Part shown: one piece after another, positions 3,763-18,731 of the stretch | Layout of the letters: each line of letters begins with the position of its first letter | Numbering within the stretch: position 1 is the first letter of the stretch | Made by a program: the position numbers and the translations under genes | UHGV virus genome: UHGV-0371767 | DNA length: 18,731 bases | Strand: one strand, 5' to 3' | Source of the DNA: a virus | The notes under the pieces: model-generated | Told to the model about the DNA's origin: nothing | The model's database searches: none | Seen by the model: only the letters and a program-made list of their open reading frames with translations

Positions 3763-4663
3763 CCGTTCCTCCGTTGGTTACGCTCCACTGCGTACATGAT
3801 GCCGCCTGTGTTTTGTTCAGGACCACATCCGCCAGAGGAGAAGCCAGCTCCACACGCTGCACACCCTCAACATGCAGGGCGGCAAAGATGGCGCTACGGC
3901 GAATATCCCGACCAAGACGCGTCTGACTGGCGATGTACTTCTGCAGGCTGACTTTTGCCGCTGCCATTACCGGCTCTGCTTCCGGTCCCGGATAAAGAAA
4001 AATGGTGGCTTCCACGCGATACGGGATGATTTCTGCGCTGCGAACCGTAAGACGGTCAGCCACCGGGCGGACGTTCTCACTGTTCAGAGCTTTTTCCACC
4101 ACGTCCAGCAGGTCTTTTTCTGCAGTTCCATCGCCTTCGCGGCTAAGGACAGTCAGCACCACCTCTGCAGGTGCCGGGCTGGTTGCACTGGCATCCGCCA
4201 CCCGACCGTCGGCGCTTCGGGCATGAAATTCATAAGCTGCAGTTGGCCCCGCAACTGAAAGCCCTTCAAAGGCTGCAGGCACACGCAGGCGTAACGCTTC
4301 ATCGCTTTCCATCACAGCTGCAACGGGCGGCACAGCGTCATTATCAGCAGGCGTCACCGTCAGGCGTTTCACGTTGTAGTTGGCAGCGAGCTGGTCAAGA
4401 TCGCTGCCCATCGCGTAAGCCACCATCACAGCCTGCGCGGCTTCGTTAATGCGCTGGCGCAGAAGCAACTCACGGTAAGCGTTCTCCTGCAGCAATTTGG
4501 TGACGGGTTCAGATTCCAGTTCCAGCGTGCGGATCACTGCTTCCTGCTCATCTTTCGGATGAAGCGCAACAAATTCGGCCTTGCGTTCGGCAAACAGCGT
4601 CTCAAAGTCCGGCACATCCACAATCTGCGGCGCAGGCAACTGCGAAAGGTCAATCACTGCCAT
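3755..4663 (-). CDS. J: Baseplate protein J (baseplate wedge)
   Basis: ORF track gives 3755..4702, but the ATG at 4663 is preceded by AGGAG at 7-nt spacing and gives 302 aa, the length I recall for P2 gpJ. Confidence 0.75.
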   Translation of the reverse strand: MAVIDLSQLPAPQIVDVPDFETLFAERKAEFVALHPKDEQEAVIRTLELESEPVTKLLQENAYRELLLRQRINEAAQAVMVAYAMGSDLDQLAANYNVKRLTVTPADNDAVPPVAAVMESDEALRLRVPAAFEGLSVAGPTAAYEFHARSADGRVADASATSPAPAEVVLTVLSREGDGTAEKDLLDVVEKALNSENVRPVADRLTVRSAEIIPYRVEATIFLYPGPEAEPVMAAAKVSLQKYIASQTRLGRDIRRSAIFAALHVEGVQRVELASPLADVVLNKTQAASCTQWSVTNGGTDE

Positions 4664-5009
4664 TCTCTGCTCCTGTTGATACGGAAAGGGAAACAGGCAC
4701 ACCGTTATTACGCCGCCCGCTCAGCGCCACCACCATTGAACCGTCAAAATTGCTGTTGATGGTGATGGAATCCAGCGTCATCCGTGGCTCCCAGCGACTC
4801 AGCGCCACATACACTGCCGACATGACCTGCAGGCGTAATGCCGGATTTTGTGGCTGGTCTATTAAAACCGACAGGAGGGAACCATATTCCCGGCGGGCAA
4901 TGCGGCTACCCTGCGGTGTCAGCAGAATGTCCCGCACCGACTGGCGCAGATGATCAATATCAGTAATGACTTTGCCGCTGGTATTGTTCATCCCGCTATA
5001 AAGCGTCAT
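4650..5009 (-). CDS. W: Baseplate protein W (gp25-like)
   Basis: 119-aa ORF between V and J in the conserved P2 baseplate order; ATG at 5009 overlaps the V stop. Confidence 0.7.
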   Translation of the reverse strand: MTLYSGMNNTSGKVITDIDHLRQSVRDILLTPQGSRIARREYGSLLSVLIDQPQNPALRLQVMSAVYVALSRWEPRMTLDSITINSNFDGSMVVALSGRRNNGVPVSLSVSTGAENGSD

Positions 5010-5584
5010 ACCGGGCCTCCGGTTGTGTCACCGCCTTTCAGGACGCCAGTATGCTGATGTGCATCAACCACAATTCCGTTAGAACTCATTGCACCGCCGC
5101 CCTGGGTAACACCACCATTGATCACTACTTCGCTGTTAATGCGTGTGCGGTCAGCCTCCAGTACAAACTCACTGGTTTTCAGGGTGATATTGTCGGCAGC
5201 CTCAATGACCATAGATTTGATGCCCCTGACATACCAGCGCCCGGTGGCGGGTTCGTATTCAAACCTGCCACCGTCCGGGTACTCAACCACGTTGCCGTCC
5301 TCAGAGTCAGAAGGTGGTGGAAACTGATTTGAGTAGACAGCAGGTAGGGCAAACGCGGTTTCCAGATTGCCACCCAGGCTGAATAGCACAACCTGCTCGC
5401 CCACAGACGGTTTCCACCAGGTGCGCGATTTGCCCGCGCGCAGTGTCAGCCAGTTAATCCAGTTGGTTTCGAGGTCGCCAGTTTTCACCCGGCAAAGCCA
5501 GTTATCCCGGTCCACTTCGGTGACTACCCCAGTACGGATCAGGTTGGTGATAAGGCGCATGATTTCTGCAAGTTGTGCGTTCAT
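5006..5584 (-). CDS. V: Baseplate central spike protein V
   Basis: 192-aa ORF first in the V-W-J-I-H-G block; ATG at 5582..5584; size close to P2 gpV. Confidence 0.7.
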   Translation of the reverse strand: MNAQLAEIMRLITNLIRTGVVTEVDRDNWLCRVKTGDLETNWINWLTLRAGKSRTWWKPSVGEQVVLFSLGGNLETAFALPAVYSNQFPPPSDSEDGNVVEYPDGGRFEYEPATGRWYVRGIKSMVIEAADNITLKTSEFVLEADRTRINSEVVINGGVTQGGGAMSSNGIVVDAHQHTGVLKGGDTTGGPV

Positions 5585-5624
5585 TCGCTTAGGATGTCGA
5601 TTAGTCGACTTCTTTGGTAGATCA

Positions 5625-5650
5625 TGTAAATTGTGTCATACATGACACAA
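5625..5650. promoter_or_regulatory. Palindromic element with two overlapping TGT-N12-ACA motifs in the V / inserted-gene intergenic region
   Basis: TGT(5625-5627)-N12-ACA(5640-5642) and TGT(5633-5635)-N12-ACA(5648-5650); core inverted repeat TTGTGTCAT-AC-ATGACACAA at 5631..5650. TGT-N12-ACA is the motif I recall for Ogr/Delta activator sites at P2 late promoters, but the spacing to either flanking start codon does not fit the usual -55 position. Confidence 0.35.
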
Positions 5651-5675
5651 TGCTAATTCACGAAAGAGAGTAATA

Positions 5676-6332
5676 ATGATGGTTTTGGATAAAGAGCAAT
5701 ATCAAGAAGTTCTAAACGAACTAGAGAAAAGAAGATATAACTCCAGAAGATCAACCACAATATTCATGACAGCCATGATCGTCATACTTGCTTATATTGC
5801 CACTGCAGTCATTTACGTAGAATTACAGAAAACACATGAAAAGGATAGAATTTCATCGCTGCTAACCGCTGACGGAATTAAATCCGTAGAATCAACAATT
5901 GACAGCTTAAATCGTGCCAGTATTGAGCTTTCTAGAAAACAAACCCAGATAAAAAACACACCTAACTCAACCCCTCAAATTCAAATAAGCGGAATAGCCC
6001 CTTTACCTTCAACACTAAACCAAAAGTCTTCTATAGATAAAATTCTAGAAACAGTAGGACCTATACTAATAGTGTTTTCCGCTATTCTATTTGTTGTGTA
6101 TATACTTCGTCTTTTTATTATATTCTTAAAATACAATATGCAAATGAATAATGATTACGACAATCAAAAAATCTCTTTTCTGCTTTCAGGTGGAGACACG
6201 AAAGAGTTTGGAGAGATACTTCAAAAAGTAAGAGGTCACAATATAAGTTTTGAAAAGACCCCTACTCTTCCGCAAGAAAAAATAATAACTGAACTGGTTG
6301 ATTTAGTTAAATCAATTAAGGGAAAGAATTAA
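5676..6332 (+). CDS. AT-rich inserted gene: predicted inner-membrane protein with two transmembrane helices, unknown function
   Basis: 218-aa ORF with AAGAGAG ribosome-binding site before ATG 5676; hydrophobic stretches around aa 28-50 and 118-148; codon usage and base composition visibly AT-rich compared with flanking phage genes; opposite strand to the late operons; lies where I recall P2 orf30. Confidence 0.7.
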   Translation: MMVLDKEQYQEVLNELEKRRYNSRRSTTIFMTAMIVILAYIATAVIYVELQKTHEKDRISSLLTADGIKSVESTIDSLNRASIELSRKQTQIKNTPNSTPQIQISGIAPLPSTLNQKSSIDKILETVGPILIVFSAILFVVYILRLFIIFLKYNMQMNNDYDNQKISFLLSGGDTKEFGEILQKVRGHNISFEKTPTLPQEKIITELVDLVKSIKGKN

Positions 6333-7199: not shown

Positions 7200-7452
7200 T
7201 GTTTCGCTCCTGACACGCAATAATCATGTCCACTTTGTCTGCACAGGCCGCCCAGGCGGCCTCCGTTTCGTCCAGCAACGCGTTCAGATCACCGTTAGTG
7301 TGCGGCGCCGCCTGATCCAACCGACACGGCGTCACTCGCGGACAACCACTGACGGTAAGCTGCACCTCCGGTGAGTACCGGACGTTCCCGCAGCCGGATA
7401 ATGTCAGCAGGCAAAGGAGTATCAGCCCAGCGGCGTAAATCCTCGTTCTCAC
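7162..7452 (-). CDS. lysC: Outer-membrane spanin lipoprotein (Rz1-like, LysC)
   Basis: 96-aa ORF in the +1 frame relative to lysB, starting inside lysB and extending past it; lipobox LLTLSGC; apparent GTG start. Confidence 0.6.
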   Translation of the reverse strand: MRTRIYAAGLILLCLLTLSGCGNVRYSPEVQLTVSGCPRVTPCRLDQAAPHTNGDLNALLDETEAAWAACADKVDMIIACQERNSEQTTIPAPCPQ

Positions 7453-7723
7453 GTTTCAGTTCCTCGATCCGGTGTTGTCGTTGTCTCAGCAGCGCGCTGG
7501 TCTGTTCTGCTTCGGCATAGAGCCGCGCCTGCTCCCGGTTATTGGTTTCAGTCAGAATGGACAGGCTGATAAGCTGGCTGTTGCTCTTTGCCAGTGCCTG
7601 GCTTTTGCTCTGCAGCTCGTCTGCCTGCGAGCTGATGGTCTGGCTGGCATCAGCCAGCCGCCACGTCTGCCAGCCCAGCGCCGCCAGTAATAACGCCAGC
7701 ATAACCAGCAGCAACCGGTTCAT
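7295..7723 (-). CDS. lysB: Inner-membrane spanin (Rz-like, LysB)
   Basis: 142-aa ORF with N-terminal transmembrane helix followed by a charged, coiled-coil-like region; ATG at 7723 overlaps the lysA stop. Confidence 0.7.
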   Translation of the reverse strand: MNRLLLVMLALLLAALGWQTWRLADASQTISSQADELQSKSQALAKSNSQLISLSILTETNNREQARLYAEAEQTSALLRQRQHRIEELKRENEDLRRWADTPLPADIIRLRERPVLTGGAAYRQWLSASDAVSVGSGGAAH

Positions 7724-8097
7724 GCTGCTACCTGTTGCGCCATCTGATTACGGGTGATCCAGAAGGCAATAACGGTCAGCAGATAAAAGACCAGGGTAAT
7801 AGCCCACCCCGTCCAGGCGAGACTGACGACAATCAGCAATCGCATCACCCAGCTGATAAATACGTTTTCTTTTCGGGTAATGGTCTTCAGCAAAGATGCC
7901 CTCAACTCCTGCCAGAGCGAGCCATTCTTAATTAACGCAGCCAGTGCTACCGGAATTACCGCCCATGTCAGTAAACAGGCTACCCAAACGCCGGACGCTG
8001 CCAGTACCGGAAAAATCCCCTGCGGATACACCATTGCTGCAATTAACAGCGCCATCCATAACATCAGAAACAGCCCGCTGATTAATTTCTTTTTCAT
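7720..8097 (-). CDS. lysA: Lysis timing membrane protein LysA
   Basis: Highly hydrophobic protein with about four helices; ATG at 8097 lies 1 nt after the endolysin stop (TGAAATG); ORF track start at 8169 would overlap the endolysin gene. Confidence 0.65.
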   Translation of the reverse strand: MKKKLISGLFLMLWMALLIAAMVYPQGIFPVLAASGVWVACLLTWAVIPVALAALIKNGSLWQELRASLLKTITRKENVFISWVMRLLIVVSLAWTGWAITLVFYLLTVIAFWITRNQMAQQVAA

Positions 8098-8098
8098 T

Positions 8099-8611
8099 TC
8101 AGTTTGCTCCCTGTAAACACCAGGCCATCTCCCGCGCACGGCGGTTATCCAGCCCCTGATTAAACACACCTTTCACATAAACCCAGCGCGGCAACTGTCG
8201 GCACGCATCCGCCCAGCGCCGCTGGTTGAGCAATTTCACCAGCGTGGAACTGCAGGCATTGCCCGTTCCCACGTTGAAGGCAAACGACACCACCGCGTCA
8301 TACACCTTTTGCGGCGGCTGTTGTTTCACACACCTTTCCAGTGCCCGCTCCACACGCAGCACATTGGAGATCAGCCCTTCCGCTGCCTGTCGTTCCGTAA
8401 TGGTTTTGCCTGGAATGACGCCCGATGTATTACCAATGCCGTCGGTCCAGACACCCGCGCTGCACTGATACGGCTGCAGACGACAGCCCTCGTAATCGGC
8501 AATCAGTTTCAGCCCCTCCACGGAGGTGTGAAGCTGCTGAAAACCCGGCAGCGTGGCAGCAATAGCCAGCACGGCCCCGACAAGGCAGCGTTTAACGATT
8601 GATGGATTCAT
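8099..8611 (-). CDS. K: Endolysin, T4-lysozyme-like muramidase with N-terminal hydrophobic segment (probable SAR endolysin)
   Basis: 170-aa ORF with strong GGGAGG ribosome-binding site; N-terminal hydrophobic stretch (CLVGAVLAIAATLPG) followed by a lysozyme-like E...C/D...T region (EGLKLIADYEGCRLQPYQCSAGVWTDGIGNT). Confidence 0.75.
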   Translation of the reverse strand: MNPSIVKRCLVGAVLAIAATLPGFQQLHTSVEGLKLIADYEGCRLQPYQCSAGVWTDGIGNTSGVIPGKTITERQAAEGLISNVLRVERALERCVKQQPPQKVYDAVVSFAFNVGTGNACSSTLVKLLNQRRWADACRQLPRWVYVKGVFNQGLDNRRAREMAWCLQGAN

Positions 8612-8807
8612 AGTCCTCCCGCGAGATCTGCCCGTCGCGCAGAAGCTGGTAGGCTTTGTGTTTGTAGTACCAGTTGATAGCCAGCATCAGCACACCGATC
8701 ATCAGGCCGCCCAGCGTTGAGGCATCCTTGATGGACAAATCGCCCAGCCAGGCCAGCACGACGGCGATGCAATACGTGATAAAGGCGCTGATTCGCTCAA
8801 GCGTCAT
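8592..8807 (-). CDS. Y: Holin (small, two transmembrane helices; pinholin-like)
   Basis: 71-aa ORF immediately upstream of the endolysin with two hydrophobic helices and a charged C-terminus; holin position in the lysis cassette. Confidence 0.65.
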   Translation of the reverse strand: MTLERISAFITYCIAVVLAWLGDLSIKDASTLGGLMIGVLMLAINWYYKHKAYQLLRDGQISREDYESINR

Positions 8808-8810
8808 AAT

Positions 8811-9014
8811 TCAGTCCCATAGCTGGACGGTCTGCACGGTGGTGGTGGTCGGAATGTCCGGCAGCTCCACCTGCAGCCCGTGAGGTAAAAAGGGGCCGTA
8901 TTCGGCAAGCCCCGGATTTGCCTTCAGTACCTGCTCCGTGACACCCTGCGTGCGCCCGTAATGACGCCAGCAAAGCGCGTCCACCGTGTCATACTGATGC
9001 GCACGCACTTTCAT
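8811..9014 (-). CDS. X: Tail protein X
   Basis: 67-aa ORF between head completion gene and holin; size and position as for P2 gpX. Confidence 0.7.
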   Translation of the reverse strand: MKVRAHQYDTVDALCWRHYGRTQGVTEQVLKANPGLAEYGPFLPHGLQVELPDIPTTTTVQTVQLWD

Positions 9015-9478
9015 CAGATAAGCTCCACTGTGCAGTGCGGCGCATCCTGCACCCGGCTGATGGCCCAGCGGGCGTCACGCCACAAATCACCGCTGGATTC
9101 CGCCAGTTCCTCGCCTCGCTTCACACCGGATGCCGTGGCGTCATAGTCCTGGTATCGTTCGTTGAGCATGGCGCGTGCCCAGCAGTAAACCGCGTTGAAA
9201 TAGTGCTGAATGCGCTCACTTTTGCCGTCCAGCTGTTCCGCCGGAACCTCAGCCAGCGACACATACCCCAGCATCTGCTGACGTCTGCGAAACTCATACA
9301 GCTCTGCGTTGACCTCCGAAATTGCCGACAGCGCAACCTGCTTTAAACGCGGCTGCGTCACCGTGCCGTCAGTGCGCATGACACTGCGAAATTCCGACAG
9401 GTCCACATCAGGCCAGAACGGCGTGTTTCTGATGATTTCCGCCTGTTCCGGTGCCTGTTCTGGCGCAACAAACTTCAT
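9014..9478 (-). CDS. L: Head completion/stabilisation protein L
   Basis: Resembles P2 gpL as recalled; the ATG at 9478 has an AGGAGA ribosome-binding site, whereas the ORF-track start at 9541 is GTG with none. Confidence 0.7.
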   Translation of the reverse strand: MKFVAPEQAPEQAEIIRNTPFWPDVDLSEFRSVMRTDGTVTQPRLKQVALSAISEVNAELYEFRRRQQMLGYVSLAEVPAEQLDGKSERIQHYFNAVYCWARAMLNERYQDYDATASGVKRGEELAESSGDLWRDARWAISRVQDAPHCTVELI

Positions 9479-9573
9479 GCTGCTTTCTCCTGAAATAGAG
9501 GGCGGTGGACGGGGTTTTGATATGGCAGTGCCTTTCGCCACCCCGTGCCGCCCGTGCGCGGGGGCACGTTCTG

Positions 9574-10224
9574 TCAGCGGCTGTCATTGCGCAGTCTGCG
9601 CTCCAGCTGCTGTTTGTCTTTTTTCACGCCACAGCGGGGATCGAGCTGTAACGCATGGTTGAGATGATTAAGGGCGGACGCCGGATTGTTTTCACTCAGG
9701 ACAGCGCCAATCGCTTTATGCAGACGCGCCCGTGACTGGTCCGGCATATCCATACCGTCTGTCAGCTCCAGCGTCTGCAGCAACAGATCGGCATCAAAGC
9801 CGGTGGCGGCAAGCATTGCGCTCTGGGCTGCATCTGCCATTTCCTCTGCCAGCACGGTCTGCACGTTGCGGTTACCTAACGGCATCACCCAGCCATGACG
9901 CAGGGCGTGACGCCCGATCTCCAGCCCCCCGGCATAATCTCCGGCATCAATGCGCCACAGCATCACGTACATCAGCACGTCATCCTGCTGTGCGCCTCCG
10001 GCAGCCAGGACACCCTCCGCCCAGGCGGCGTACTTCGGCAGCAGCTCCACTTTGATTTCCGCTTTTTTGACCGTGGACTGAACCCCCTTGAGACGGCGGC
10101 GGTCTTCCGCCAGTTGCAGCAGCATCAGGTCATAGCCCGACGCGTGGCGAACACTGCCGCCCTCGCGGGCGGCCTGTTCAGCCTGAACGCGCAGGCGATG
10201 CTGCCGTGCGGGACTCAGGCTCAT
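9574..10224 (-). CDS. M: Terminase endonuclease (small) subunit M
   Basis: 216-aa ORF following the capsid gene in the O-N-M-L order; ATG at 10224. Confidence 0.7.
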   Translation of the reverse strand: MSLSPARQHRLRVQAEQAAREGGSVRHASGYDLMLLQLAEDRRRLKGVQSTVKKAEIKVELLPKYAAWAEGVLAAGGAQQDDVLMYVMLWRIDAGDYAGGLEIGRHALRHGWVMPLGNRNVQTVLAEEMADAAQSAMLAATGFDADLLLQTLELTDGMDMPDQSRARLHKAIGAVLSENNPASALNHLNHALQLDPRCGVKKDKQQLERRLRNDSR

Positions 10225-10227
10225 GGA

Positions 10228-11286
10228 TTACGCTCCGGTTTCTGCTGCGGCGGCGCTGAAGTCGCCAATCTGGATGTTTTCCACCAGTGCGGCGCAGCGG
10301 TAGTCCTCAACCACATAGGCTTCGTTAACGGATTCAAAGTTTTCAATCCGGTCACGTTTCGGGTTGTCGATAACTGAACGGCGGCGGGTGTCTTCCTGCC
10401 AGTAGATGGACAGGTTATCCAGACGGGTGATCAGCAGCGCATTCGGCGGGAAGAACGGCGCACGCACGGCCTGCAGGCCACCCATGCGTTTCTGACTGAT
10501 GATCATATCGGCAGCCAGTTTTTCACTGTTTTCCTGCTCTTTGTTGACCAGTGGGAAATACTTGTCAGACAGCAGTTCACGACCGCAAATCACCACCAGA
10601 TCGTCATCGTCCTGGTAGACCACGTCGATAAGCTCATTAACGGCATCCATCACCACGGCGTCCAAGTTGGCATATTCGCCACCTTTACCAACTTTCACCG
10701 CACCCGGTGTGGTTTCACCGCCCGTGGTGGTGCTGCCCATGACGTGATCCGGTGCATCCTCACGGATTTTCTGCAGCCAGCCTTTGTTTACATCCTGCAG
10801 CAGCGGGTTTTCACTACGGTTGGAGGTTTTCGCACGCTTCACGCCGTTAAAGCCGATCATGATGCGGTCCAGAGCCTGACGTTTCACGATGGCGTCACGG
10901 ATACGCACCTGAAAATCCTGAAACTTCGCCCACAGGTCCAGCTTCGCGTAGGTCAGTACCGTGTCAAAGTTGGTCTGCTCGCATTTATATTCCACATCGA
11001 CCATCAGCGTCGGATCGACAGGTTCACGCTCTTTCGCGGTGGTGTCAGTGGTTCCGGCAATGGTGCTGCCAACTCCCAACCCCAGCAGCTGACCGGACTG
11101 CTCAGTCACTGGCGTGACGTTAATCAGCGTCAGGAAAGCGGCGGACTGCTGGATCTGGTCTTCCAATGTCTGCTGCACGGACGGCTCTACGGTGAACTTG
11201 CTGGACAGTTCTTCAACTGCCACACCGTTCAGACGCGCCAGCTGCTTCAGGTAAGCGTTAAAAGCAAAGCGGGTATTCTTCTTCAT
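10228..11286 (-). CDS. N: Major capsid protein N
   Basis: 352-aa ORF with GGAG ribosome-binding site; size and position match P2 gpN (recalled as about 357 aa). Confidence 0.8.
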   Translation of the reverse strand: MKKNTRFAFNAYLKQLARLNGVAVEELSSKFTVEPSVQQTLEDQIQQSAAFLTLINVTPVTEQSGQLLGLGVGSTIAGTTDTTAKEREPVDPTLMVDVEYKCEQTNFDTVLTYAKLDLWAKFQDFQVRIRDAIVKRQALDRIMIGFNGVKRAKTSNRSENPLLQDVNKGWLQKIREDAPDHVMGSTTTGGETTPGAVKVGKGGEYANLDAVVMDAVNELIDVVYQDDDDLVVICGRELLSDKYFPLVNKEQENSEKLAADMIISQKRMGGLQAVRAPFFPPNALLITRLDNLSIYWQEDTRRRSVIDNPKRDRIENFESVNEAYVVEDYRCAALVENIQIGDFSAAAAETGA

Positions 11287-11302
11287 CAGGTTTTGTGCTC
11301 CA

Positions 11303-12136
11303 TCAGCAATTGGTCAGAGTGTCAGCGGGGGCGTTACCGCCTGTTGCACGCTGGCGGTAGTCCTGGCGGCTGTCTTCTTGGCTCAACTTGTCCACCAGTT
11401 CGTTAAAGGCGGTCTGCTGTGCCTGCAGGGCAGTCTCCAGCTCAGACAGGCGTTCTTCCTGCTCAGACAGGGATTTTTCGGTGCGCGCACTCAGGTTCTG
11501 CTGCTCAGTGGCGACCAGTTCCACGGCCTTATGCACATCAGAGAACCGGGCATCATCGGACTGCTCTTTTTTGGTGAACAGCGCTGTGACACGGGCAAAC
11601 AGGGACGGTTTGTCATCCTGGATTTCTTCCAGTTCGATCACCGTTTCCTCTGCAGCGGTAAAAAGATTGGCGGGATTCTGCTTGCGGTTTGCCAGCGGGT
11701 TATGAGCTGCACTGGCGCTGAATGTCAGCATTTCAGTGCCCAGACTGGCAGGGTCATCAGTGGCAGCCAGGCCGACCAGGTAGGCTTTGCCCGTATCAGC
11801 GAACTTCGGGCTGACTTCCATAGAGGTGAATAATTTCTGGCCTTTTTTCACCAGTTCCACCAGGGACTCCGTTGGCTCAACGTCGGCATACAGCGCCATC
11901 TTGCCTGCCAGCGGACCTTCCGTGATTTCTTCAGCAAACAGCGCCGTCACCTTGCCGTAGCGGTTAAAGGTGCTGTCCGGCAGATAAGACTTGATGTGCT
12001 CAAGGTTAATCAGCGCGGTATACACCGCCGGGTTGTAGCTGGCTGCCATCTGTTCCAGCCATTCACGCTGGATTTCGCGTCCGTCGGTGGTGGCACCTTC
12101 CACCCCGATGCGAAAACGCTTTGCTTTCACTGTCAT
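11303..12136 (-). CDS. O: Capsid scaffolding protein O
   Basis: 277-aa ORF, acidic, coiled-coil-rich C-terminal half; first gene of the leftward late operon, divergent from P. Confidence 0.75.
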   Translation of the reverse strand: MTVKAKRFRIGVEGATTDGREIQREWLEQMAASYNPAVYTALINLEHIKSYLPDSTFNRYGKVTALFAEEITEGPLAGKMALYADVEPTESLVELVKKGQKLFTSMEVSPKFADTGKAYLVGLAATDDPASLGTEMLTFSASAAHNPLANRKQNPANLFTAAEETVIELEEIQDDKPSLFARVTALFTKKEQSDDARFSDVHKAVELVATEQQNLSARTEKSLSEQEERLSELETALQAQQTAFNELVDKLSQEDSRQDYRQRATGGNAPADTLTNC

Positions 12137-12214
12137 GAGCCGTGCTCCGTTAGAAAAAACTTACTGGAGCCTTATGGTTGCGGTGATGGGGGCAGTGAAA
12201 CAATGCGCGGTATT

Positions 12215-12232
12215 TGTACCGACAACCACACA
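12215..12232. promoter_or_regulatory. TGT-N12-ACA box in the divergent O/P intergenic region (candidate Ogr/Delta activator site for the O-operon late promoter)
   Basis: TGT at 12215-12217, 12-nt spacer, ACA at 12230-12232. The centre is about 87 nt upstream of the O start codon, compatible with a -55 site and a roughly 30-nt leader; too close to the P start to serve P. Confidence 0.4.
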
Positions 12233-12278
12233 AACCGCAGGCGGGGAAAGCCTTCATTCAAGGCTGTAGGTTTGTGCC

Positions 12279-14045
12279 ATGAACACCACACTGACACCCG
12301 CAGATCTCGATCCCCGTCGGCAGGCCATGCTGCTGTACTTTCAGGGATACCGCGTAGCCCGCATTGCTGAAATGCTGGGCGAGAAAGTTGCAACCGTTCA
12401 CAGCTGGAAAAAACGCGACAAGTGGGGTGACTATGGGCCGCTGGATCAGATGCAGCTCACCACCGCCGCCCGCTACTGCCAGCTCATTATGAAGGAGCAC
12501 AAAGAAGGGAAAGATTTCAAAGAGATTGACCTGCTGGCGCGCCAGTCGGAGCGCCACGCGCGGATCGGCAAGTTTAACAATGGCGGCAACGAAGCCGACT
12601 TAAACCCAAACGTCGCCAACCGCAACAAAGGCCCGCGCCGTCAGCCGGAAAAGAATGTTTTCACCGATGAACAGATTGAGAAGCTGGAAGAAATCTTCCA
12701 TTCCTCCATGTTCAACTACCAGCGCCACTGGTGGGAAGCCGGAAAAACCAACCGCATCCGCAACCTGCTGAAGTCACGCCAGATCGGCGCGACCTTTTAC
12801 TTTGCCCGTGAAGCCCTGATTGACGCCCTGCTGACCGGGCGTAACCAGATTTTCCTTTCCGCCAGTAAGGCACAGGCGCACGTCTTTAAGCAGTACATCA
12901 TCGACTTCGCCAAAGAAGTGGAAGTGGAGCTGAAAGGCGATCCGATGGTGCTTCCTAACGGTGCCACGCTTTACTTCCTCGGCACCAATGCCCGCACGGC
13001 CCAGAGTTATCACGGCAACCTGTATCTGGATGAATATTTCTGGATACCGAAATTTCAGGAGCTGCGCAAAGTGGCTTCCGGTATGGCTATTCACAAGAAA
13101 TGGCGGCAGACCTATTTTTCCACGCCATCCAGCCTGACACACAGTGCTTATCCGTTCTGGTCCGGTGCGCTGTTCAACCGTGGGCGCAACAAAGCTGACA
13201 AGGTGGACATCGACCTGTCCCACAGCAATCTGGCCCCCGGCCTGCTGTGCGCAGACGGGCAATACCGCCAGATAGTCACCGTGGAAGATGCGGTGCGCGG
13301 CGGCTGTAACCTGTTCGACCTCGACCAGCTACGCATGGAGTACAGCCCGGACGAATACCAGAACCTGCTGATGTGCGAGTTCGTGGACGATCTCGCGTCC
13401 GTGTTCCCGCTCAGCGAACTGCAGGCGTGCATGGTGGACAGCTGGGAAGTCTGGACCGACTTTCATGCACTGGCCCTGCGCCCGTTTGGCTGGCGCGAAG
13501 TGTGGATCGGTTATGACCCGGCGAAAGGTACGCAGAACGGCGACAGTGCCGGATGCGTGGTGGTGGCTCCGCCAGCCGTGCCAGGCGGCAAGTTCCGCAT
13601 TCTTGAGCGTCACCAGTGGCGCGGGATGGACTTTCGCGCCCAGGCTGACGCCATCAAAAAACTGACCGAACAGTACAATGTGACCTATATCGGTATCGAC
13701 TCAACCGGCGTTGGTCACGGGGTTTACGAGAACGTGAAAGCGTTTTTTCCTGCCGTCCGGGAGTTTGTCTACAACCCCAACGTTAAAAACGCCCTGGTAC
13801 TCAAGGCCTACGACATTATCAGCCACCGCCGTCTGGAGTTTGACGCCGGACACACCGACATAGCACAGTCCTTTATGGCAATCCGTCGTGCCACCACCGC
13901 CAGCGGCAACCGCCCGACCTATGAAGCCAGCCGCAGCGAAGAAGCCAGCCACGCCGATCTGGCTTGGGCAACAATGCACGCACTGTTTAACGAACCACTG
14001 CAAGGCGAGTCCGCCAATACCAGTAATATTGTGGAGATTTTTTGA
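12279..14045 (+). CDS. P: Terminase ATPase (large) subunit P
   Basis: 588-aa ORF, size matching P2 gpP (recalled as about 590 aa); stop overlaps the portal start (TGATG). Confidence 0.85.
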   Translation: MNTTLTPADLDPRRQAMLLYFQGYRVARIAEMLGEKVATVHSWKKRDKWGDYGPLDQMQLTTAARYCQLIMKEHKEGKDFKEIDLLARQSERHARIGKFNNGGNEADLNPNVANRNKGPRRQPEKNVFTDEQIEKLEEIFHSSMFNYQRHWWEAGKTNRIRNLLKSRQIGATFYFAREALIDALLTGRNQIFLSASKAQAHVFKQYIIDFAKEVEVELKGDPMVLPNGATLYFLGTNARTAQSYHGNLYLDEYFWIPKFQELRKVASGMAIHKKWRQTYFSTPSSLTHSAYPFWSGALFNRGRNKADKVDIDLSHSNLAPGLLCADGQYRQIVTVEDAVRGGCNLFDLDQLRMEYSPDEYQNLLMCEFVDDLASVFPLSELQACMVDSWEVWTDFHALALRPFGWREVWIGYDPAKGTQNGDSAGCVVVAPPAVPGGKFRILERHQWRGMDFRAQADAIKKLTEQYNVTYIGIDSTGVGHGVYENVKAFFPAVREFVYNPNVKNALVLKAYDIISHRRLEFDAGHTDIAQSFMAIRRATTASGNRPTYEASRSEEASHADLAWATMHALFNEPLQGESANTSNIVEIF

Positions 14046-15076
14046 TGGGAAAGAGTAAGAAGAACCGCGCTGCGTCGACGAACCAGATCCAGCATAAAAG
14101 CCAGACTTCAGCCGAAGCATTCAGCTTCGGTGATCCCGTTCCTGTTCTGGACCGCCGCGAACTACTGGACTATGTGGAATGCGTACAGACAGATCGCTGG
14201 TATGAGCCGCCAGTAAGCTTTGACGGACTGGCGCGCACCTTCCGCGCCGCCGTGCATCACAGTTCACCAATTGCGGTGAAATGCAACATTCTGACCAGTA
14301 CCTACATCCCTCACCCGCTGCTCAGCCAGCAGGCTTTTTCACGTTTTGTGCAGGACTATCTGGTATTTGGTAACGCCTACCTGGAGAAACGCACGAACCG
14401 CTTCGGTGAAGTTATCGCCCTTGAGCCAGCTTTGGCAAAATACACCCGACGCGGATTAGACCTGGATACCTACTGGTTTGTGCAATACGGTATGACAGCC
14501 CAGCCGTATCAGTTCACGAAAGGCAGCATTTTTCATCTGATGGAACCGGACATCAACCAGGAGATCTACGGCCTGCCCGGTTATCTTTCTGCCATTCCAT
14601 CCGCCCTGCTCAACGAATCCGCCACGCTGTTCCGCCGCAAGTATTACATTAACGGCAGTCATGCTGGCTTCATCATGTACATGACCGACGCCGCGCAGAA
14701 CCAGGAAGATGTGAACAACCTCCGTAATGCGATGAAAAGCGCCAAAGGCCCAGGCAATTTCCGCAACCTGTTTATGTACTCGCCTAACGGCAAAAAGGAT
14801 GGTCTTCAGATTATCCCGTTATCAGAAGTCGCGGCAAAGGATGAATTTCTTAACATCAAGAACGTCAGCCGTGATGATATGATGGCGGCGCATCGTGTAC
14901 CGCCACAGATGATGGGGATTATGCCGAATAATGTTGGGGGGTTTGGGGATGTGGAGAAGGCGGCAAATGTATTTGTGCGTAATGAGCTTATTCCATTACA
15001 AAAAATACTCGAAGAAATAAATAATTGGTTAGACAATACAATAATACAATTCAAAAATTACTCATTGACGATGTAA
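14045..15076 (+). CDS. Q: Portal (capsid vertex) protein Q
   Basis: 343 aa from the ATG at 14045 (the ORF track starts 3 nt earlier at a TTG); size and position match P2 gpQ. Confidence 0.85.
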   Translation: MGKSKKNRAASTNQIQHKSQTSAEAFSFGDPVPVLDRRELLDYVECVQTDRWYEPPVSFDGLARTFRAAVHHSSPIAVKCNILTSTYIPHPLLSQQAFSRFVQDYLVFGNAYLEKRTNRFGEVIALEPALAKYTRRGLDLDTYWFVQYGMTAQPYQFTKGSIFHLMEPDINQEIYGLPGYLSAIPSALLNESATLFRRKYYINGSHAGFIMYMTDAAQNQEDVNNLRNAMKSAKGPGNFRNLFMYSPNGKKDGLQIIPLSEVAAKDEFLNIKNVSRDDMMAAHRVPPQMMGIMPNNVGGFGDVEKAANVFVRNELIPLQKILEEINNWLDNTIIQFKNYSLTM

Positions 15077-15080
15077 ATTA

Positions 15081-15110
15081 AAATTTAGCTGGCTAATGCC
15101 AGCTAAATTT
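15081..15110. terminator. Bidirectional intrinsic terminator between convergent genes Q and the cargo operon
   Basis: Perfect 13-bp stem AAATTTAGCTGGC / GCCAGCTAAATTT with 4-nt loop TAAT, flanked by A/T runs on both sides; sits between the Q stop (15074..15076) and the cargo gene stop (15113..15115). Confidence 0.7.
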
Positions 15111-15112
15111 TA

Positions 15113-15742
15113 TCATTTCAAATAACGACAATCAGTTTCCCTATCAAGAAAATCAATCATTTCATCATTTGTATAATGTGCATTCAAACCAATTTTAAAC
15201 GTTGGCGGATTAGAATAAAAGACGTCGAAATGATATAATGGATGACGATTTCCATTAGCCCTTTCTTCATCGACATCATATCTAATATAACCATCCTCAT
15301 AAGTTAACAACATTCTAAGAAAAGGCCAAAACCCGGGAATACCTTGATGTTCTTCAATATTTAACAATGGTTCAAAAAAGGCCCAAGAAGAACTATTCAA
15401 ATAAGAGGAGTCATTAATAAAAGAAATGACTTTTGATGTTACAAAACTATCTATACACTCCATTTCTGGACTACTAAATAAAATCTGACCATTAATTTCA
15501 TCAAGAAAAAAAGGAAATGCAAGAGAATAATATTTATTTTCACTAAAGAAGAAAACTCGACTCATCTTTGATATATGAAGTTTCACTCTCCCAACCACAT
15601 TCTGTTCGCATGGTTCTGTATAAACAGAAATTAGTTTGATTAATCTCATCAATATTTCAATAACATCTTTCTTTGTTCGTATTGGCTTAAAGGCCCAGTC
15701 ACACTGAGCCTGCTCCAGACTAAAATAATACTCTTTATTCAC
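15113..15742 (-). CDS. Cargo gene B: 209-aa soluble protein of unknown function, translationally coupled to the upstream helicase-like gene
   Basis: GTG start at 15742..15740 preceded by AGGAG 5 nt upstream and overlapping the upstream stop (GTGA); AT-rich composition; no recognisable catalytic motif. Confidence 0.65.
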   Translation of the reverse strand: MNKEYYFSLEQAQCDWAFKPIRTKKDVIEILMRLIKLISVYTEPCEQNVVGRVKLHISKMSRVFFFSENKYYSLAFPFFLDEINGQILFSSPEMECIDSFVTSKVISFINDSSYLNSSSWAFFEPLLNIEEHQGIPGFWPFLRMLLTYEDGYIRYDVDEERANGNRHPLYHFDVFYSNPPTFKIGLNAHYTNDEMIDFLDRETDCRYLK

Positions 15743-17817
15743 TTCGACTCCTGAAGCATTATTTCATAGTTGAACCGAACAAGAGTAGTAATTTTATCGA
15801 CATCAAAAGAATCAGGCATGATTGTTTTTACTGTATTATACAGGGATGTACGAAATATCGGCTCAATCTGTAAGTCATCGAAGACCTTTGTAACCAAATC
15901 ATAATGAGATATATTTTTCTCATCATATTTGATTGTTGTTCTTATTTTTGAAATAACTTCTCTCGGTGGAACGTTAATATCCATATAACCATGCTCATTA
16001 ATAGCATCTAACCCCTTTTCTATCTCATTCTGTAAGTCTTTATTCCCATCCCCCAGAAGCAAATATGATTTAATAAAGGAACGAGTTAACATCATATATA
16101 GTGAATTTCGATAAGAATGGCTCTTGATAATATCACGAGTAACACAGATAACAAAAGGAAACTCCAACCCTTTTACATGGTTTTTATTACTTATGAATAA
16201 CGTATCTTTAATTTTTTCTTTTGTTTCATATGCCTTATTAACCTTCCACCCTAATAATCTAGGCACGCTCAATTCAAGTCTGTCTGCGATTTTAAATATA
16301 GTCTTAGCCTGATCAATAAAGATGATACCAATATCATCAGCCAAAACAGTAGGATTCTCCTCCTTAATTTTACGGAGTATACCCAAAATATTCTCTTCTT
16401 CAGTTTCATATGTGGAATTAATTAATTCCACACTATGTATTTTTGCATCCGTTACATCTTCAAATCTTCTTAGTGGCTCTCTCTTTAATCTTAATTTACC
16501 TTTTACCGATTCATCAACTATATAACCGCAGGCTTCCCATTCATTATTCATTAACCAAGTTAATGGTTCTTCTTCAAATAGCCCCATACCTAAACCATGA
16601 GCAAACATCAATGTCCTTGGATCTGTTCGGTAGCATTTACTTAGAAGAAAGTCTGGCTGTATCTCATTAGAGATATTAGTATCAAATATACTTTGAAATA
16701 TATCACCAGCAACATAAATAGTATCACGAGTTACCAGCTCGCAAAGCTCAATGAAGCTTGATGGGAAATCCTGACTTTCATCTATTAACATAAAGTCAAA
16801 GCAATGCTTAAATTCATTGCTTGGCAACTTTTTTAGTTCATCCAACGCAATTCTACATACTTTATCGAAAGTCATCACATAGCTAAAGCGATAGAAACTT
16901 AATCCATAATATTCACATATATATCTATATGCGCCAGAGTTACCGTCATATTGAGAACCCCATGCATTAACACACCAAAGTCTTTCATTCCAGCTAATCT
17001 GCTGCTCGACCTTCATAAAGTTGAAAAACTCTGGAATTCTCTTTCTCATATTGTCTGCCAATATTTTATTATGGCACGTAAACATTATTTTACTATTTAA
17101 ATTCTCCTTATCCAAATATATTTCCTTTAACTTATGAAGCAATAGTTCAGTCTTACCAGTACCTGATAATCCTTGAATAACAACTTTTTTCTTATCAAAT
17201 TTTTGGTATACAAACCTTGTCTGATCTCCATCAAACAAAATTATCTTTTGCTTAACCTTGTCAAGTATATTATCTGGCACATTGCCTTTAACTTTATCAA
17301 TATTATTGATACTTCCTGTTAAGAGAGAGATAATTAACTCACTCTTTTTAGCCAGAACACCATCAATAATTTTAATTTCATCAAAAAACTTATCAAGATT
17401 ACCGAAACTAAAATCAGCGTATGAGCACTCAGTAACAAGTTTATCTTTCCACGCTCGAGGCCTACCAATTGTATCTTTATAATTGTATTTATCTGATAAG
17501 GAACCTAAATCCTCTATAAAATCCTCTATAAAATTTTGTATACCATCAACATCATCACTAAAAGCAACGAACGCTAATTGGTATCCTGGGCTTAATATAA
17601 TAAGAACATCGTCTCTATTATATTTATATTTATTTTCCCCTAAGGGATTCATTATTGCATAAATCTGCATTTGATGAGTATTTGCATACTCTTCAACAGA
17701 GTTCAAAAAATCAGCATTTGTATCATTTTTTAAATCAGGCTGGATATAAAAGAAACTGCTCATAGAAAGCCTTAACGAGGTGGATAAAAACTTATATGTT
17801 GTTTCTAAAATTAGCAT
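15739..17817 (-). CDS. Cargo gene A: SF1 helicase-like P-loop ATPase (UvrD/RecD/DUF2075-like motifs) with an unassigned N-terminal domain of about 200 aa
   Basis: 692-aa ORF. Walker A GLSGTGKT (aa 216-223), motif II LIDESQD (aa 344-350), motif III VAGDIFQS (aa 369-376), motif IV CYRT (aa 395-398), motif VI-like YMMLTRS near the C-terminus. Strongly AT-rich. The true start may be the internal ATG at 17763 (AAGG ribosome-binding site), giving 674 aa. Confidence 0.75.
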   Translation of the reverse strand: MLILETTYKFLSTSLRLSMSSFFYIQPDLKNDTNADFLNSVEEYANTHQMQIYAIMNPLGENKYKYNRDDVLIILSPGYQLAFVAFSDDVDGIQNFIEDFIEDLGSLSDKYNYKDTIGRPRAWKDKLVTECSYADFSFGNLDKFFDEIKIIDGVLAKKSELIISLLTGSINNIDKVKGNVPDNILDKVKQKIILFDGDQTRFVYQKFDKKKVVIQGLSGTGKTELLLHKLKEIYLDKENLNSKIMFTCHNKILADNMRKRIPEFFNFMKVEQQISWNERLWCVNAWGSQYDGNSGAYRYICEYYGLSFYRFSYVMTFDKVCRIALDELKKLPSNEFKHCFDFMLIDESQDFPSSFIELCELVTRDTIYVAGDIFQSIFDTNISNEIQPDFLLSKCYRTDPRTLMFAHGLGMGLFEEEPLTWLMNNEWEACGYIVDESVKGKLRLKREPLRRFEDVTDAKIHSVELINSTYETEEENILGILRKIKEENPTVLADDIGIIFIDQAKTIFKIADRLELSVPRLLGWKVNKAYETKEKIKDTLFISNKNHVKGLEFPFVICVTRDIIKSHSYRNSLYMMLTRSFIKSYLLLGDGNKDLQNEIEKGLDAINEHGYMDINVPPREVISKIRTTIKYDEKNISHYDLVTKVFDDLQIEPIFRTSLYNTVKTIMPDSFDVDKITTLVRFNYEIMLQESK

Positions 17818-17897
17818 TTTTCAACAAACTTTTCCATTCAGCCATCATCTTGCAGGTGCTTGTTTTGCCTTCCCCCCCACTCAGCCACTTGCGCGCG

Positions 17898-17916
17898 CTC
17901 GTATCCCCGCCACGCC
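17898..17916. other. Candidate cos site (cohesive-end sequence of a P2-like phage)
   Basis: Reverse complement of 17891..17925 reads GGCGTGGCGGGGATACGAGCGCGCGC, close to the P2 left cohesive end as I recall it (GGCGAGGCGGGGAAAGCAC followed by TGCGCGC); embedded in a short GC-rich block (about 17850..18060) between two AT-rich cargo regions. Confidence 0.55.
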
Positions 17917-18236
17917 TGCCCGCTTTGTATAGCGGTTTTCATGCACTCGCATGGCATAAGGGAAACCTTGCCAGAACTGGCGACCCTCAGCGAAAACGAT
18001 CTTCAAACGATCATGCGGATTCATGCAGCATAGACAGGCACTACTGAGCAATAGCGCTTGAGTTCAGTCAGATATGAGTCCTCAATGTAATACTAATACA
18101 TCTTAACCGTTCATCATTATTCACATCGGGCTATGTAATTACAGAAAAACTTTTCACAATCAATTTTATACTGGATTATTTCAGTTTATTGTATAATTCA
18201 TGACGCATGCAAATTGACATTAATTCAGGAGACAAA

Positions 18237-18731
18237 ATGACATTAATTGTAGCTGGTTTCGAAAAAGATGGAACAATTGTTTTTTGCGGGGACTCACTAA
18301 TAACAACAAAAGCAAATGGAAGCACTGTAAAATTGACATCGTCCTTCAGAAAAATAATACCACTAGAAATTATTGTGCGAGTACCGGAAATCGATCCAAG
18401 TGGAAAAATCATAAATTACATTGAAAGCCTTTGCCAACATCGCTGCATGATTGCATTTGCAGGAAGCACGCTAGTTTCTCAACATATTATAAATTCTATA
18501 CAAGGTCATCTGAAACAAATAAAATACACGTATGATTCTGGCACATATGACTATTCAGAAGGATGCATAAAGGGTGCTGGCTATAAGTTAATAATGGGTT
18601 GTGAAGATAACAAAAGCGTTGAGGAAACCTATTGGAACGAAGATATGTTTGTTGAGCCAGTAAAGAATGCGAACGAACTTATTAATAAAAATTTTCTACG
18701 CAACGTCTTTAGCCACTGCATACAGAAAACC
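18237..18731 (+). CDS. AT-rich cargo gene beyond cos, 3'-truncated by window end (165 codons visible); weak proteasome/HslV-like Ntn-hydrolase N-terminal signature
   Basis: ATG at 18237 preceded by AGGAG (18227..18231) and a TATAAT box at 18192..18197; open reading frame runs without stop to the window end (absent from the ORF track for that reason). N-terminus MTLIVAGFEKDGTIVFCGDS and later IAFAGS loosely resemble HslV (TTIVSVRRNGHVVIAGDGQ… VIAGFAGG). Confidence 0.55.
   Translation, partial: MTLIVAGFEKDGTIVFCGDSLITTKANGSTVKLTSSFRKIIPLEIIVRVPEIDPSGKIINYIESLCQHRCMIAFAGSTLVSQHIINSIQGHLKQIKYTYDSGTYDYSEGCIKGAGYKLIMGCEDNKSVEETYWNEDMFVEPVKNANELINKNFLRNVFSHCIQKT

Follow-up and report, generated by a model that had tools for sequence, protein, structure and literature searches.

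The question raised by this locus is whether a short GC-rich block near one end of a P2-like prophage is the packaging site of the phage, and whether the AT-rich cargo genes on its two flanks arrived there together or as separate acquisitions. The window, by which we mean the whole 18,731-nucleotide stretch analyzed here (UHGV virus genome UHGV-0371767), is the late-gene half of the prophage, in an orientation reversed with respect to the P2 map. It includes the terminase genes M (9574-10224) and P (12279-14045, plus strand), both assigned by identity to the annotation of Escherichia coli N9, and the portal gene Q (14042..15076, plus strand; TIGR01540 portal, E 1.6e-109). Past Q come AT-rich DNA with two minus-strand genes, the GC-richer block, and again AT-rich DNA, this time with a plus-strand open reading frame (ORF). 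As the initial annotation had described, the cargo on both flanks is AT-rich, with 32-36% GC against 53.5% in the backbone. By segment, GC content is 32.4% in the Q-side cargo (15077-17890), 55.5% in the block (17891-18045), 31.9% in the leader on the other side (18046-18236), and 35.8% in the plus-strand, HslV-like ORF.

The block lies between portal gene Q, on the side of terminase genes P and M, and the replication (A) end of the genome, which follows in all relatives and here falls outside the window; the window stops 815 nt past the cos sequence described below. In close relatives, the genes beyond this point are CI/CII/Fil, DinI (tum-like), Dam, and A, which identifies the element in the window as one of the 186/Fels-2 type. 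We refer to the two flanks as the Q side and the A side.

Our results make it very probable that a P2-like prophage of the Fels-2/186 type has its cos site at positions 17891 to about 18041, with a separate cargo slot on each side. To compare the block with known packaging sites, the circular junctions of P2, P4, 186, and PSP3 were rebuilt from linear records with annotated cohesive ends and aligned to the reverse complement of the window. The 55-mer with the highest score, at 17891..17945 on the minus strand, matches these junctions at 41, 44, 43, and 44 of 55 positions, respectively, while the runner-up site scores 27-31, as do 20 shuffles of the window. A core of about 55 bp is a recognized signature of P2-family cos sites (Ziermann and Calendar 1990, as cited in PMC5694545), although the limits used here were set by our alignment and the original delimitation may differ. 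The window and all four phages have in common TGCATnAAAACC-8 nt-AAGnGGGCn, the 19-mer, and nGCGCGC. By sequence, then, the similarity is to cos, and the reverse-strand P2-like match in the initial annotation holds up in alignment.

Within this core, the predicted 19-nt cohesive end lies at 17898..17916 on the minus strand (5'-GGCGTGGCGGGGATACGAG), with predicted nicks at both of its ends and in register with the annotated ends of P2, 186, and PSP3. It has the 19-nt GC-rich form GGCG(A/T)GGCGGGGA... and, in direct comparison, agrees with the 186 19-mer (GGCGTGGCGGGGAAAGCAT) at 15 of 19 positions and with that of P2 (GGCGAGGCGGGGAAAGCAC) at 14 of 19. Fels-2, ten E. coli prophages, and SEN8, an isolated Salmonella phage, all have the identical 19-mer. 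In the SEN8 record, it occupies bases 1-19 and is annotated as a 'putative cos site', the last base of the record corresponds to window position 17917, and the record termini fall at the same predicted nick positions. Around the 19-mer extends an invariant core of 36 bp (17891..17926), composed of GCGCGCG, the 19-mer, and TGCCCGCTTT; it is 100% identical in 11 of 11 reference loci and has more than 120 exact copies in IMG/VR. We infer the cleavage positions from this register, and cos is predicted to fix the ends of the linear genome, in agreement with the earlier proposal. Our literature search found nothing usable on an experimentally mapped cos of the Fels-2 type, and a 2026 survey of P2-like viruses in Commun Biol makes no mention of cos.

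The interval originally drawn as the cos block (17818-18236) proved to be a composite. Its central part, from 17891 to about 18041, is cos proper; the part to the left of it (17818-17890) belongs to the leader of the helicase operon (17764-17890), and the part to the right (18042-18236) is the leader of the A-side gene. These limits follow from a conservation profile of 112 distinct IMG/VR neighborhoods among the matches listed, in which the conserved block runs from 17891 to about 18041. The two sides of the block end differently. When prophages with different cargo are compared, Q-side homology ends 7 nt from the 19-mer, with only GCGCGCG in common, whereas A-side homology runs from cos to about +125 nt and then ends in all of them.

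The conserved stretch on the A side, which we call the cos right arm (17927..18041), is a candidate region for recognition by terminase, and we infer that it binds this enzyme. CATGC/TGCATG motifs recur in it, a hairpin spans 17968-17983, and two copies of the AAACGATC repeat lie at 17994-18012. The right arm of the window is atypical: it deviates at 9 of 70 positions whose conservation among arms with the same core reaches 90% or more (86 distinct arms; median 1, 90th percentile 4), and among 1,264 E. coli copies, none exceeds 83.5% identity to it. By the same 70-position score, Fels-2 deviates at 0 positions, SEN8 at 2, and 186 at 21. Since the arm departs this far from its relatives, packaging efficiency could be reduced; alternatively, the arm may have its origin in a distant lineage.

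Separately, each of the two AAACGATC direct repeats contains a GATC site. In Fels-2-type arms, the conservation of these sites is at least 90%, and the final 220 nt of the 186 right arm have none. A Dam methylase gene adjoins A in both relatives checked, N9 and Fels-2. The cleavage of pac in phage P1 is Dam regulated, and the combination of GATC repeats with Dam is reminiscent of that case, which we mention as a lead only.

The deviant arm also allows a different interpretation, namely, that the site is a relic in a defective prophage or one with a decayed right arm, that packaging has been lost, and that the cargo marks an eroding element. The arm does score above the 90th percentile of the distinct arms, the visible prophage ends at 18731, and some relatives, such as the copy in E. 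coli BL21, are clearly degraded. However, the whole 36-bp core, including the 19-mer, is intact and the same as in Fels-2 and SEN8, and the arms of 186 and PSP3, which are functional, depart even further from the consensus, at 21-22 positions. The late-gene ORFs as annotated in N9, P and Q included, are open, and the sequence from 7388 to 17926 matches N9 without a single mismatch. Cargo on both sides is found in the viable phage SEN8 as well. We therefore regard a relic as unlikely and continue to read the block as a cos site with a conserved core and an unusual arm.

On the Q side, the interval between cos and Q is filled by a pair of helicase genes, as the helicase operon of the initial annotation implied. 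The gene nearer to cos (15739..17763, minus strand) encodes a 674-aa SF1/UvrD-like helicase of the STM2767 family (NF053713 equivalog, E 2.8e-298) with the Pfam domains UvrD-helicase, UvrD_C_2, and AAA_19; in PADLOC, it has a partial 'Helicase' match only (2.7e-28). Its start was placed at 17763, and not at 17817, according to the RefSeq annotation of the identical N9 gene. Upstream of it, the 5' leader and promoter region of the operon (17764..17890, minus strand) is specific to this cassette and abuts the cos core. The second gene (15113..15742, minus strand) encodes a 209-aa helicase-associated protein of the STM2766 family (NCBIfam NF053714 equivalog, E 7.5e-63) that has no Pfam or PADLOC match even at E<=10; the idea that it is the analogue of DUF2290 in the validated Helicase+DUF2290 system was dropped on this account. 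Between the convergent Q and STM2766-family genes lies a hairpin with a perfect 14-bp stem (15080..15111; AAAATTTAGCTGGC-TAAT-GCCAGCTAAATTTT, with A4 and T4 runs at its flanks), which from its sequence is likely a bidirectional terminator. Our consensus promoter and terminator scan performed no better than on shuffles and missed this hairpin, so its output serves for description only. The exact helicase cassette is present in 5 of the 5,426 E. coli genomes searched.

The cassette appears to extend into the portal gene itself. The last ~100 nt of Q (14970-15076, plus strand; ~35 codons) have a GC content of only 25%, and among prophages the nucleotides of this portal tail vary with the cargo while the motif FVRNELxPLQ..N.W is kept. 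Across 77 loci, the adjusted mutual information (AMI) between portal tail and cargo is 0.94, compared to 0.15 between the body of Q and cargo, and the mean GC content is 34% in the tail versus 52% in mid-gene. Every Q-side cargo cassette thus seems to bring its own re-coded portal C terminus, and the limits of the Q-side slot are about codon 310 of Q and a point 7 nt short of the nick.

On the A side, the slot begins some 125 nt away from the second nick and, to judge from the relatives compared, extends toward DinI (tum-like) and A; its far boundary falls outside the window. It opens with an AT-rich, cargo-specific leader (18042..18236, plus strand) in which a candidate extended -10 element, TGTATAAT, can be read by eye at 18190-18197, although it is absent from the calls of the promoter scan. 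The cargo gene starts with an ATG at 18237 and runs off the window after 165 codons (18237..18731, plus strand); the full protein would have about 285 aa. Beyond about 18045, no homology to any relative was found, and a sensitive blastn search of 18050-18731 against 5,426 E. coli genomes gave no match.

The initial annotation had called this gene HslV-like, which is correct for the fold and not for the family. The protein has a proteasome-beta/HslV-like Ntn-hydrolase fold with the N-terminal Thr nucleophile of family T1, but it is not a member of the HslV sequence family: the ORF has no Pfam, NCBIfam, or PADLOC match, identity to its structural matches is 9-18%, and it has an extra C-terminal domain of ~100 aa. 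The family is rare, with 7 distant homologues among 5.8 billion proteins, none of them identical, in which the Met-Thr start is invariant. A Yersinia homologue (8001-8861 of its locus sequence) lies 30 nt downstream of a gene for an Mrr_cat nuclease, in a neighborhood that is plasmid- or ICE-like and not that of a P2 phage, and in which no ATPase, such as an HslU-type partner, was seen next to it. We consider this family a candidate for a new defense or addiction effector.

Whether the two flanks are independent can be judged from the occupancy of the same places in other genomes. The cos-Q interval of P2, 186, and PSP3 measures 167-178 bp and holds the terminator only; on the A side, P2 has old and tin, and 186 has orf97. 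Among complete E. coli genomes, 1,272 records match the Q-cos region, and in an evenly spaced sample of 60, both Q and cos are present in 50, with 0.5-2.8 kb between them in 47 of these 50. The cargo found there includes P-loop NTPases, OLD-like nucleases, TIR, PIN, DUF262/HEPN, SieB, and DprA+PRTase proteins, as well as retron Ec67 and an St85-family retron, the latter in BL21. About two thirds also have extra genes between cos and DinI. At a fixed place between conserved phage genes, gene content is therefore highly variable, as is typical of a hotspot, and the cos-to-Q interval is indeed a second variable slot, as the earlier reading had suggested, though one already in the literature.

In BL21, we observed that the St85-family retron reverse transcriptase and its effector occupy the same Q-cos slot (4089-6137 of the BL21 locus sequence), in a P2-like prophage that is degraded and in which the A and CII genes are truncated. 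By position and strain, this is presumably the Ec86 of Dodd and Egan.

An IMG/VR scan with the exact 36-bp core returned at least 120 loci, and 115 of the matches listed were analyzed, dereplicated only by sequence cluster. These 115 loci fall into 82 Q-side, 49 right-arm, and 51 A-side clusters. Among them, the AMI of the Q side is -0.004 with the right arm and -0.004 with the A-side cargo, whereas right arm and A-side cargo are linked, with an AMI of 0.73. The Q-side slot is occupied in 77 of 87 and the A-side slot in 55 of 84 of the listed matches that could be scored for each; the distance from the Q stop to cos has a median of 1,541 bp, with 11% empty, and that from cos to DinI a median of 472 bp, with 35% empty. 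Both slots are filled in 38 of 61 listed loci, which makes the layout of the window the commonest one, and the two occupancies are independent of each other (Fisher p=1).

Individual cassettes tell the same story. The helicase cassette of the window is known with three A-side states, being combined with an empty A side in four E. coli strains, with a 336-nt gene in strain FORC_081, and with the HslV-like gene in the window. Conversely, the 336-nt gene stands opposite the helicase in FORC_081, a retron in BL21, and DprA in AMSHJX01. The two slots, between which only the 36-bp core is invariant, thus assort independently, and the view that cargo was acquired separately on each flank of the packaging site is borne out, both by these combinations and by an AMI near zero.

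Published work has treated the region differently. [quoted passage not shown] Rousset et al. (2022) described the cos-proximal gpA-gpQ region as a defense hotspot with 18,150 loci and 1,650 arrangements (PMC9122126); the helicase arrangement of FORC_081 appears in their Table S5A with the genes from both sides of cos pooled. The same definition of the gpA-gpQ hotspot was used in a 2026 study in NAR (PMC13586616).

Such pooling would fit a single foreign island that carried its own cos and was acquired in one event, so that there would be one variable region and not two slots. The published analyses do count gpA-gpQ as a single hotspot and list the genes of both sides in a single arrangement, and the two flanks are similarly AT-rich. 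A single island is nevertheless very improbable, as it is contradicted by the lack of linkage between Q side and A side in the 115 listed loci, by the exchange of partners seen for both the helicase cassette and the 336-nt gene, and by the distribution of the two sides in E. coli, where the HslV-like side occurs in none of 5,426 genomes and the helicase side in 5. Least credible of all is that the block is coding, as the N terminus of a 692-aa helicase reading or as small ORFs at 17796-18047 (plus strand) and 17881-18051 (minus strand): mechanical ORFs do span it and some phage records annotate a 'hypothetical protein' there, but the 27 differences between the arms of the window and N9 are distributed 7, 10, and 10 by codon phase with no third-position bias, the left parts of the ORFs lie in cargo-specific DNA without counterpart in relatives, the RefSeq helicase start is downstream of the block, and annotated cohesive ends align with the block in register. 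We accordingly rejected the small ORFs as genes, as they lack codon periodicity and start in cargo-specific DNA. Two independently assorting slots around a cos site therefore remain our reading of the locus.

How such slots may exchange their contents is suggested by the comparison with N9. The stretch from 7388 to 17926 (10,539 bp) has zero mismatches to the N9 prophage and ends 10 nt past the predicted nick. The first mismatch, at 17927, is 11 nt beyond that nick; from there on, 26 mismatches occur in 119 nt (77% identity), after which homology is absent. This joint, situated in the invariant cos core, looks like a recombination joint. A leftward search for a second crossover with N9 found sparse SNPs and a tail-fiber swap at 1272-2096 only.

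In that tail-fiber and assembly region, the window is diverged from N9 between 1272 and 2096, and the part from 1365 to 2050 is replaced (686 versus 587 bp). In N9, an invertase-like gene of the recombinase family lies immediately upstream of the position where the window starts. The region may be an invertible or swapped host-range segment.

In the loci inspected, no transposase gene and no direct repeats were seen at the flanks of either cassette. Together with the cassette-borne portal tail and cos arm, this points to exchange between related phages and not to de novo insertion. We propose that cassettes would be swapped among related phages via flanking homologies, with the A-side cassette carrying its own cos right arm and the Q-side cassette its own portal 3' end. 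Terminase (P, M) would recognize the conserved arm on the A side and place staggered nicks at both ends of 17898-17916, yielding virion DNA with 19-nt 5' overhangs. In the packaged genome, the left (Q) end would then carry the helicase cassette, and the right (A) end the HslV-like gene. As cos opens the circular or integrated genome, slots that are adjacent in the prophage would lie at opposite ends of the packaged DNA and could reassort freely. By the general rules of phage genetics, backbone crossovers anywhere, combined with cos cutting, would unlink the two slots.

A more specific idea, which we hold to be possible and rather less probable than its opposite, is that the invariant 36-bp core is the actual exchange point at which left- and right-end cassettes are shuffled. 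In this case, the terminase-cut ends of co-resident P2-like phages with the same 19-mer might anneal and be ligated, or a cut end might seed recombination. The direct joining of cohesive ends from different phages was put forward as a speculation in the preprint of Rousset et al. Joining at cos ends and ordinary or double crossover predict the same pattern in these data. If the core were the exchange point, the location of the hotspot on cos would be explained, and the window would represent an example caught in the act.

The function of the cargo is probably anti-phage defense, judging from its position in the hotspot; neither the Q-side nor the A-side unit matches a validated defense system in PADLOC. 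The helicase pair and the proteasome-fold gene are reasonable candidates for anti-phage testing.

Our findings carry little weight as a discovery, as P2-family cos sites and their cargo hotspot belong to textbooks and the recent literature, and cargo on both flanks of cos is already known as the usual state of these phages. In the hotspot papers cited here, we did not find a statement of two unlinked slots, of a portal tail borne by the cassette, or of linkage between the cos arm and the A-side cargo, and we regard these three points as modest refinements and not as a new phenomenon. For annotation, our results set the predicted virion ends and assign the helicase pair and the proteasome-fold gene to separate halves of the hotspot. 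Two unlinked slots around a 36-bp pivot could also help hotspot mining, where the pooling of both sides as one 'arrangement' inflates the apparent diversity and can combine genes that do not function as a unit.

Among known systems, the closest are Fels-2 and SEN8 (Felsduovirus), which share the 19-mer and the 36-bp core with the window, have cos at the same place between Q and the DinI/A end, and also carry genes both between cos and Q and between cos and DinI. Their cargo on both sides differs from that of the window, however, and the right arm of Fels-2 is only ~77% identical. The Eganviruses 186 and PSP3, together with P2, have the same gene neighborhood and the common flanks TGCAT..AAAACC..AAGnGGGC and GCGCGC, but their cohesive end differs in its last six bases (ATACGAG in the window; AAAGCAT or AAAGCAC in theirs). 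All three phages lack cargo between cos and Q, and P2 and 186 have theirs on the A side only. P4 shares the 55-bp core (44/55), and its variable DNA starts right after GCGCGC, on the side of cos that corresponds to the Q-side slot; it differs from the window in its P2-type 19-mer, its single hotspot (psu-int), and its lack of a portal gene. The cos site of phage lambda (cosN, cosB, and cosQ) is likewise a short site cut by staggered nicks, and its recognition arm is asymmetric, lying to one side of it; there too cos sets the ends of the linear map and the markers flanking it are unlinked. Lambda cos has no sequence similarity to the site described here, and its overhang has 12 nt compared to 19 nt. 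The terminase of P2, for its part, is reported to act on circular monomers. The gpA-gpQ hotspot and the slot of Dodd and Egan are the same locus and show the same behavior, that is, foreign cassettes beside cos. The published gpA-gpQ region is one hotspot, whereas here it is divided into two slots by a cos block of ~150 bp, and the slot of Dodd and Egan is bounded at the terminator, whereas the left boundary of the cassette in the window lies inside Q.
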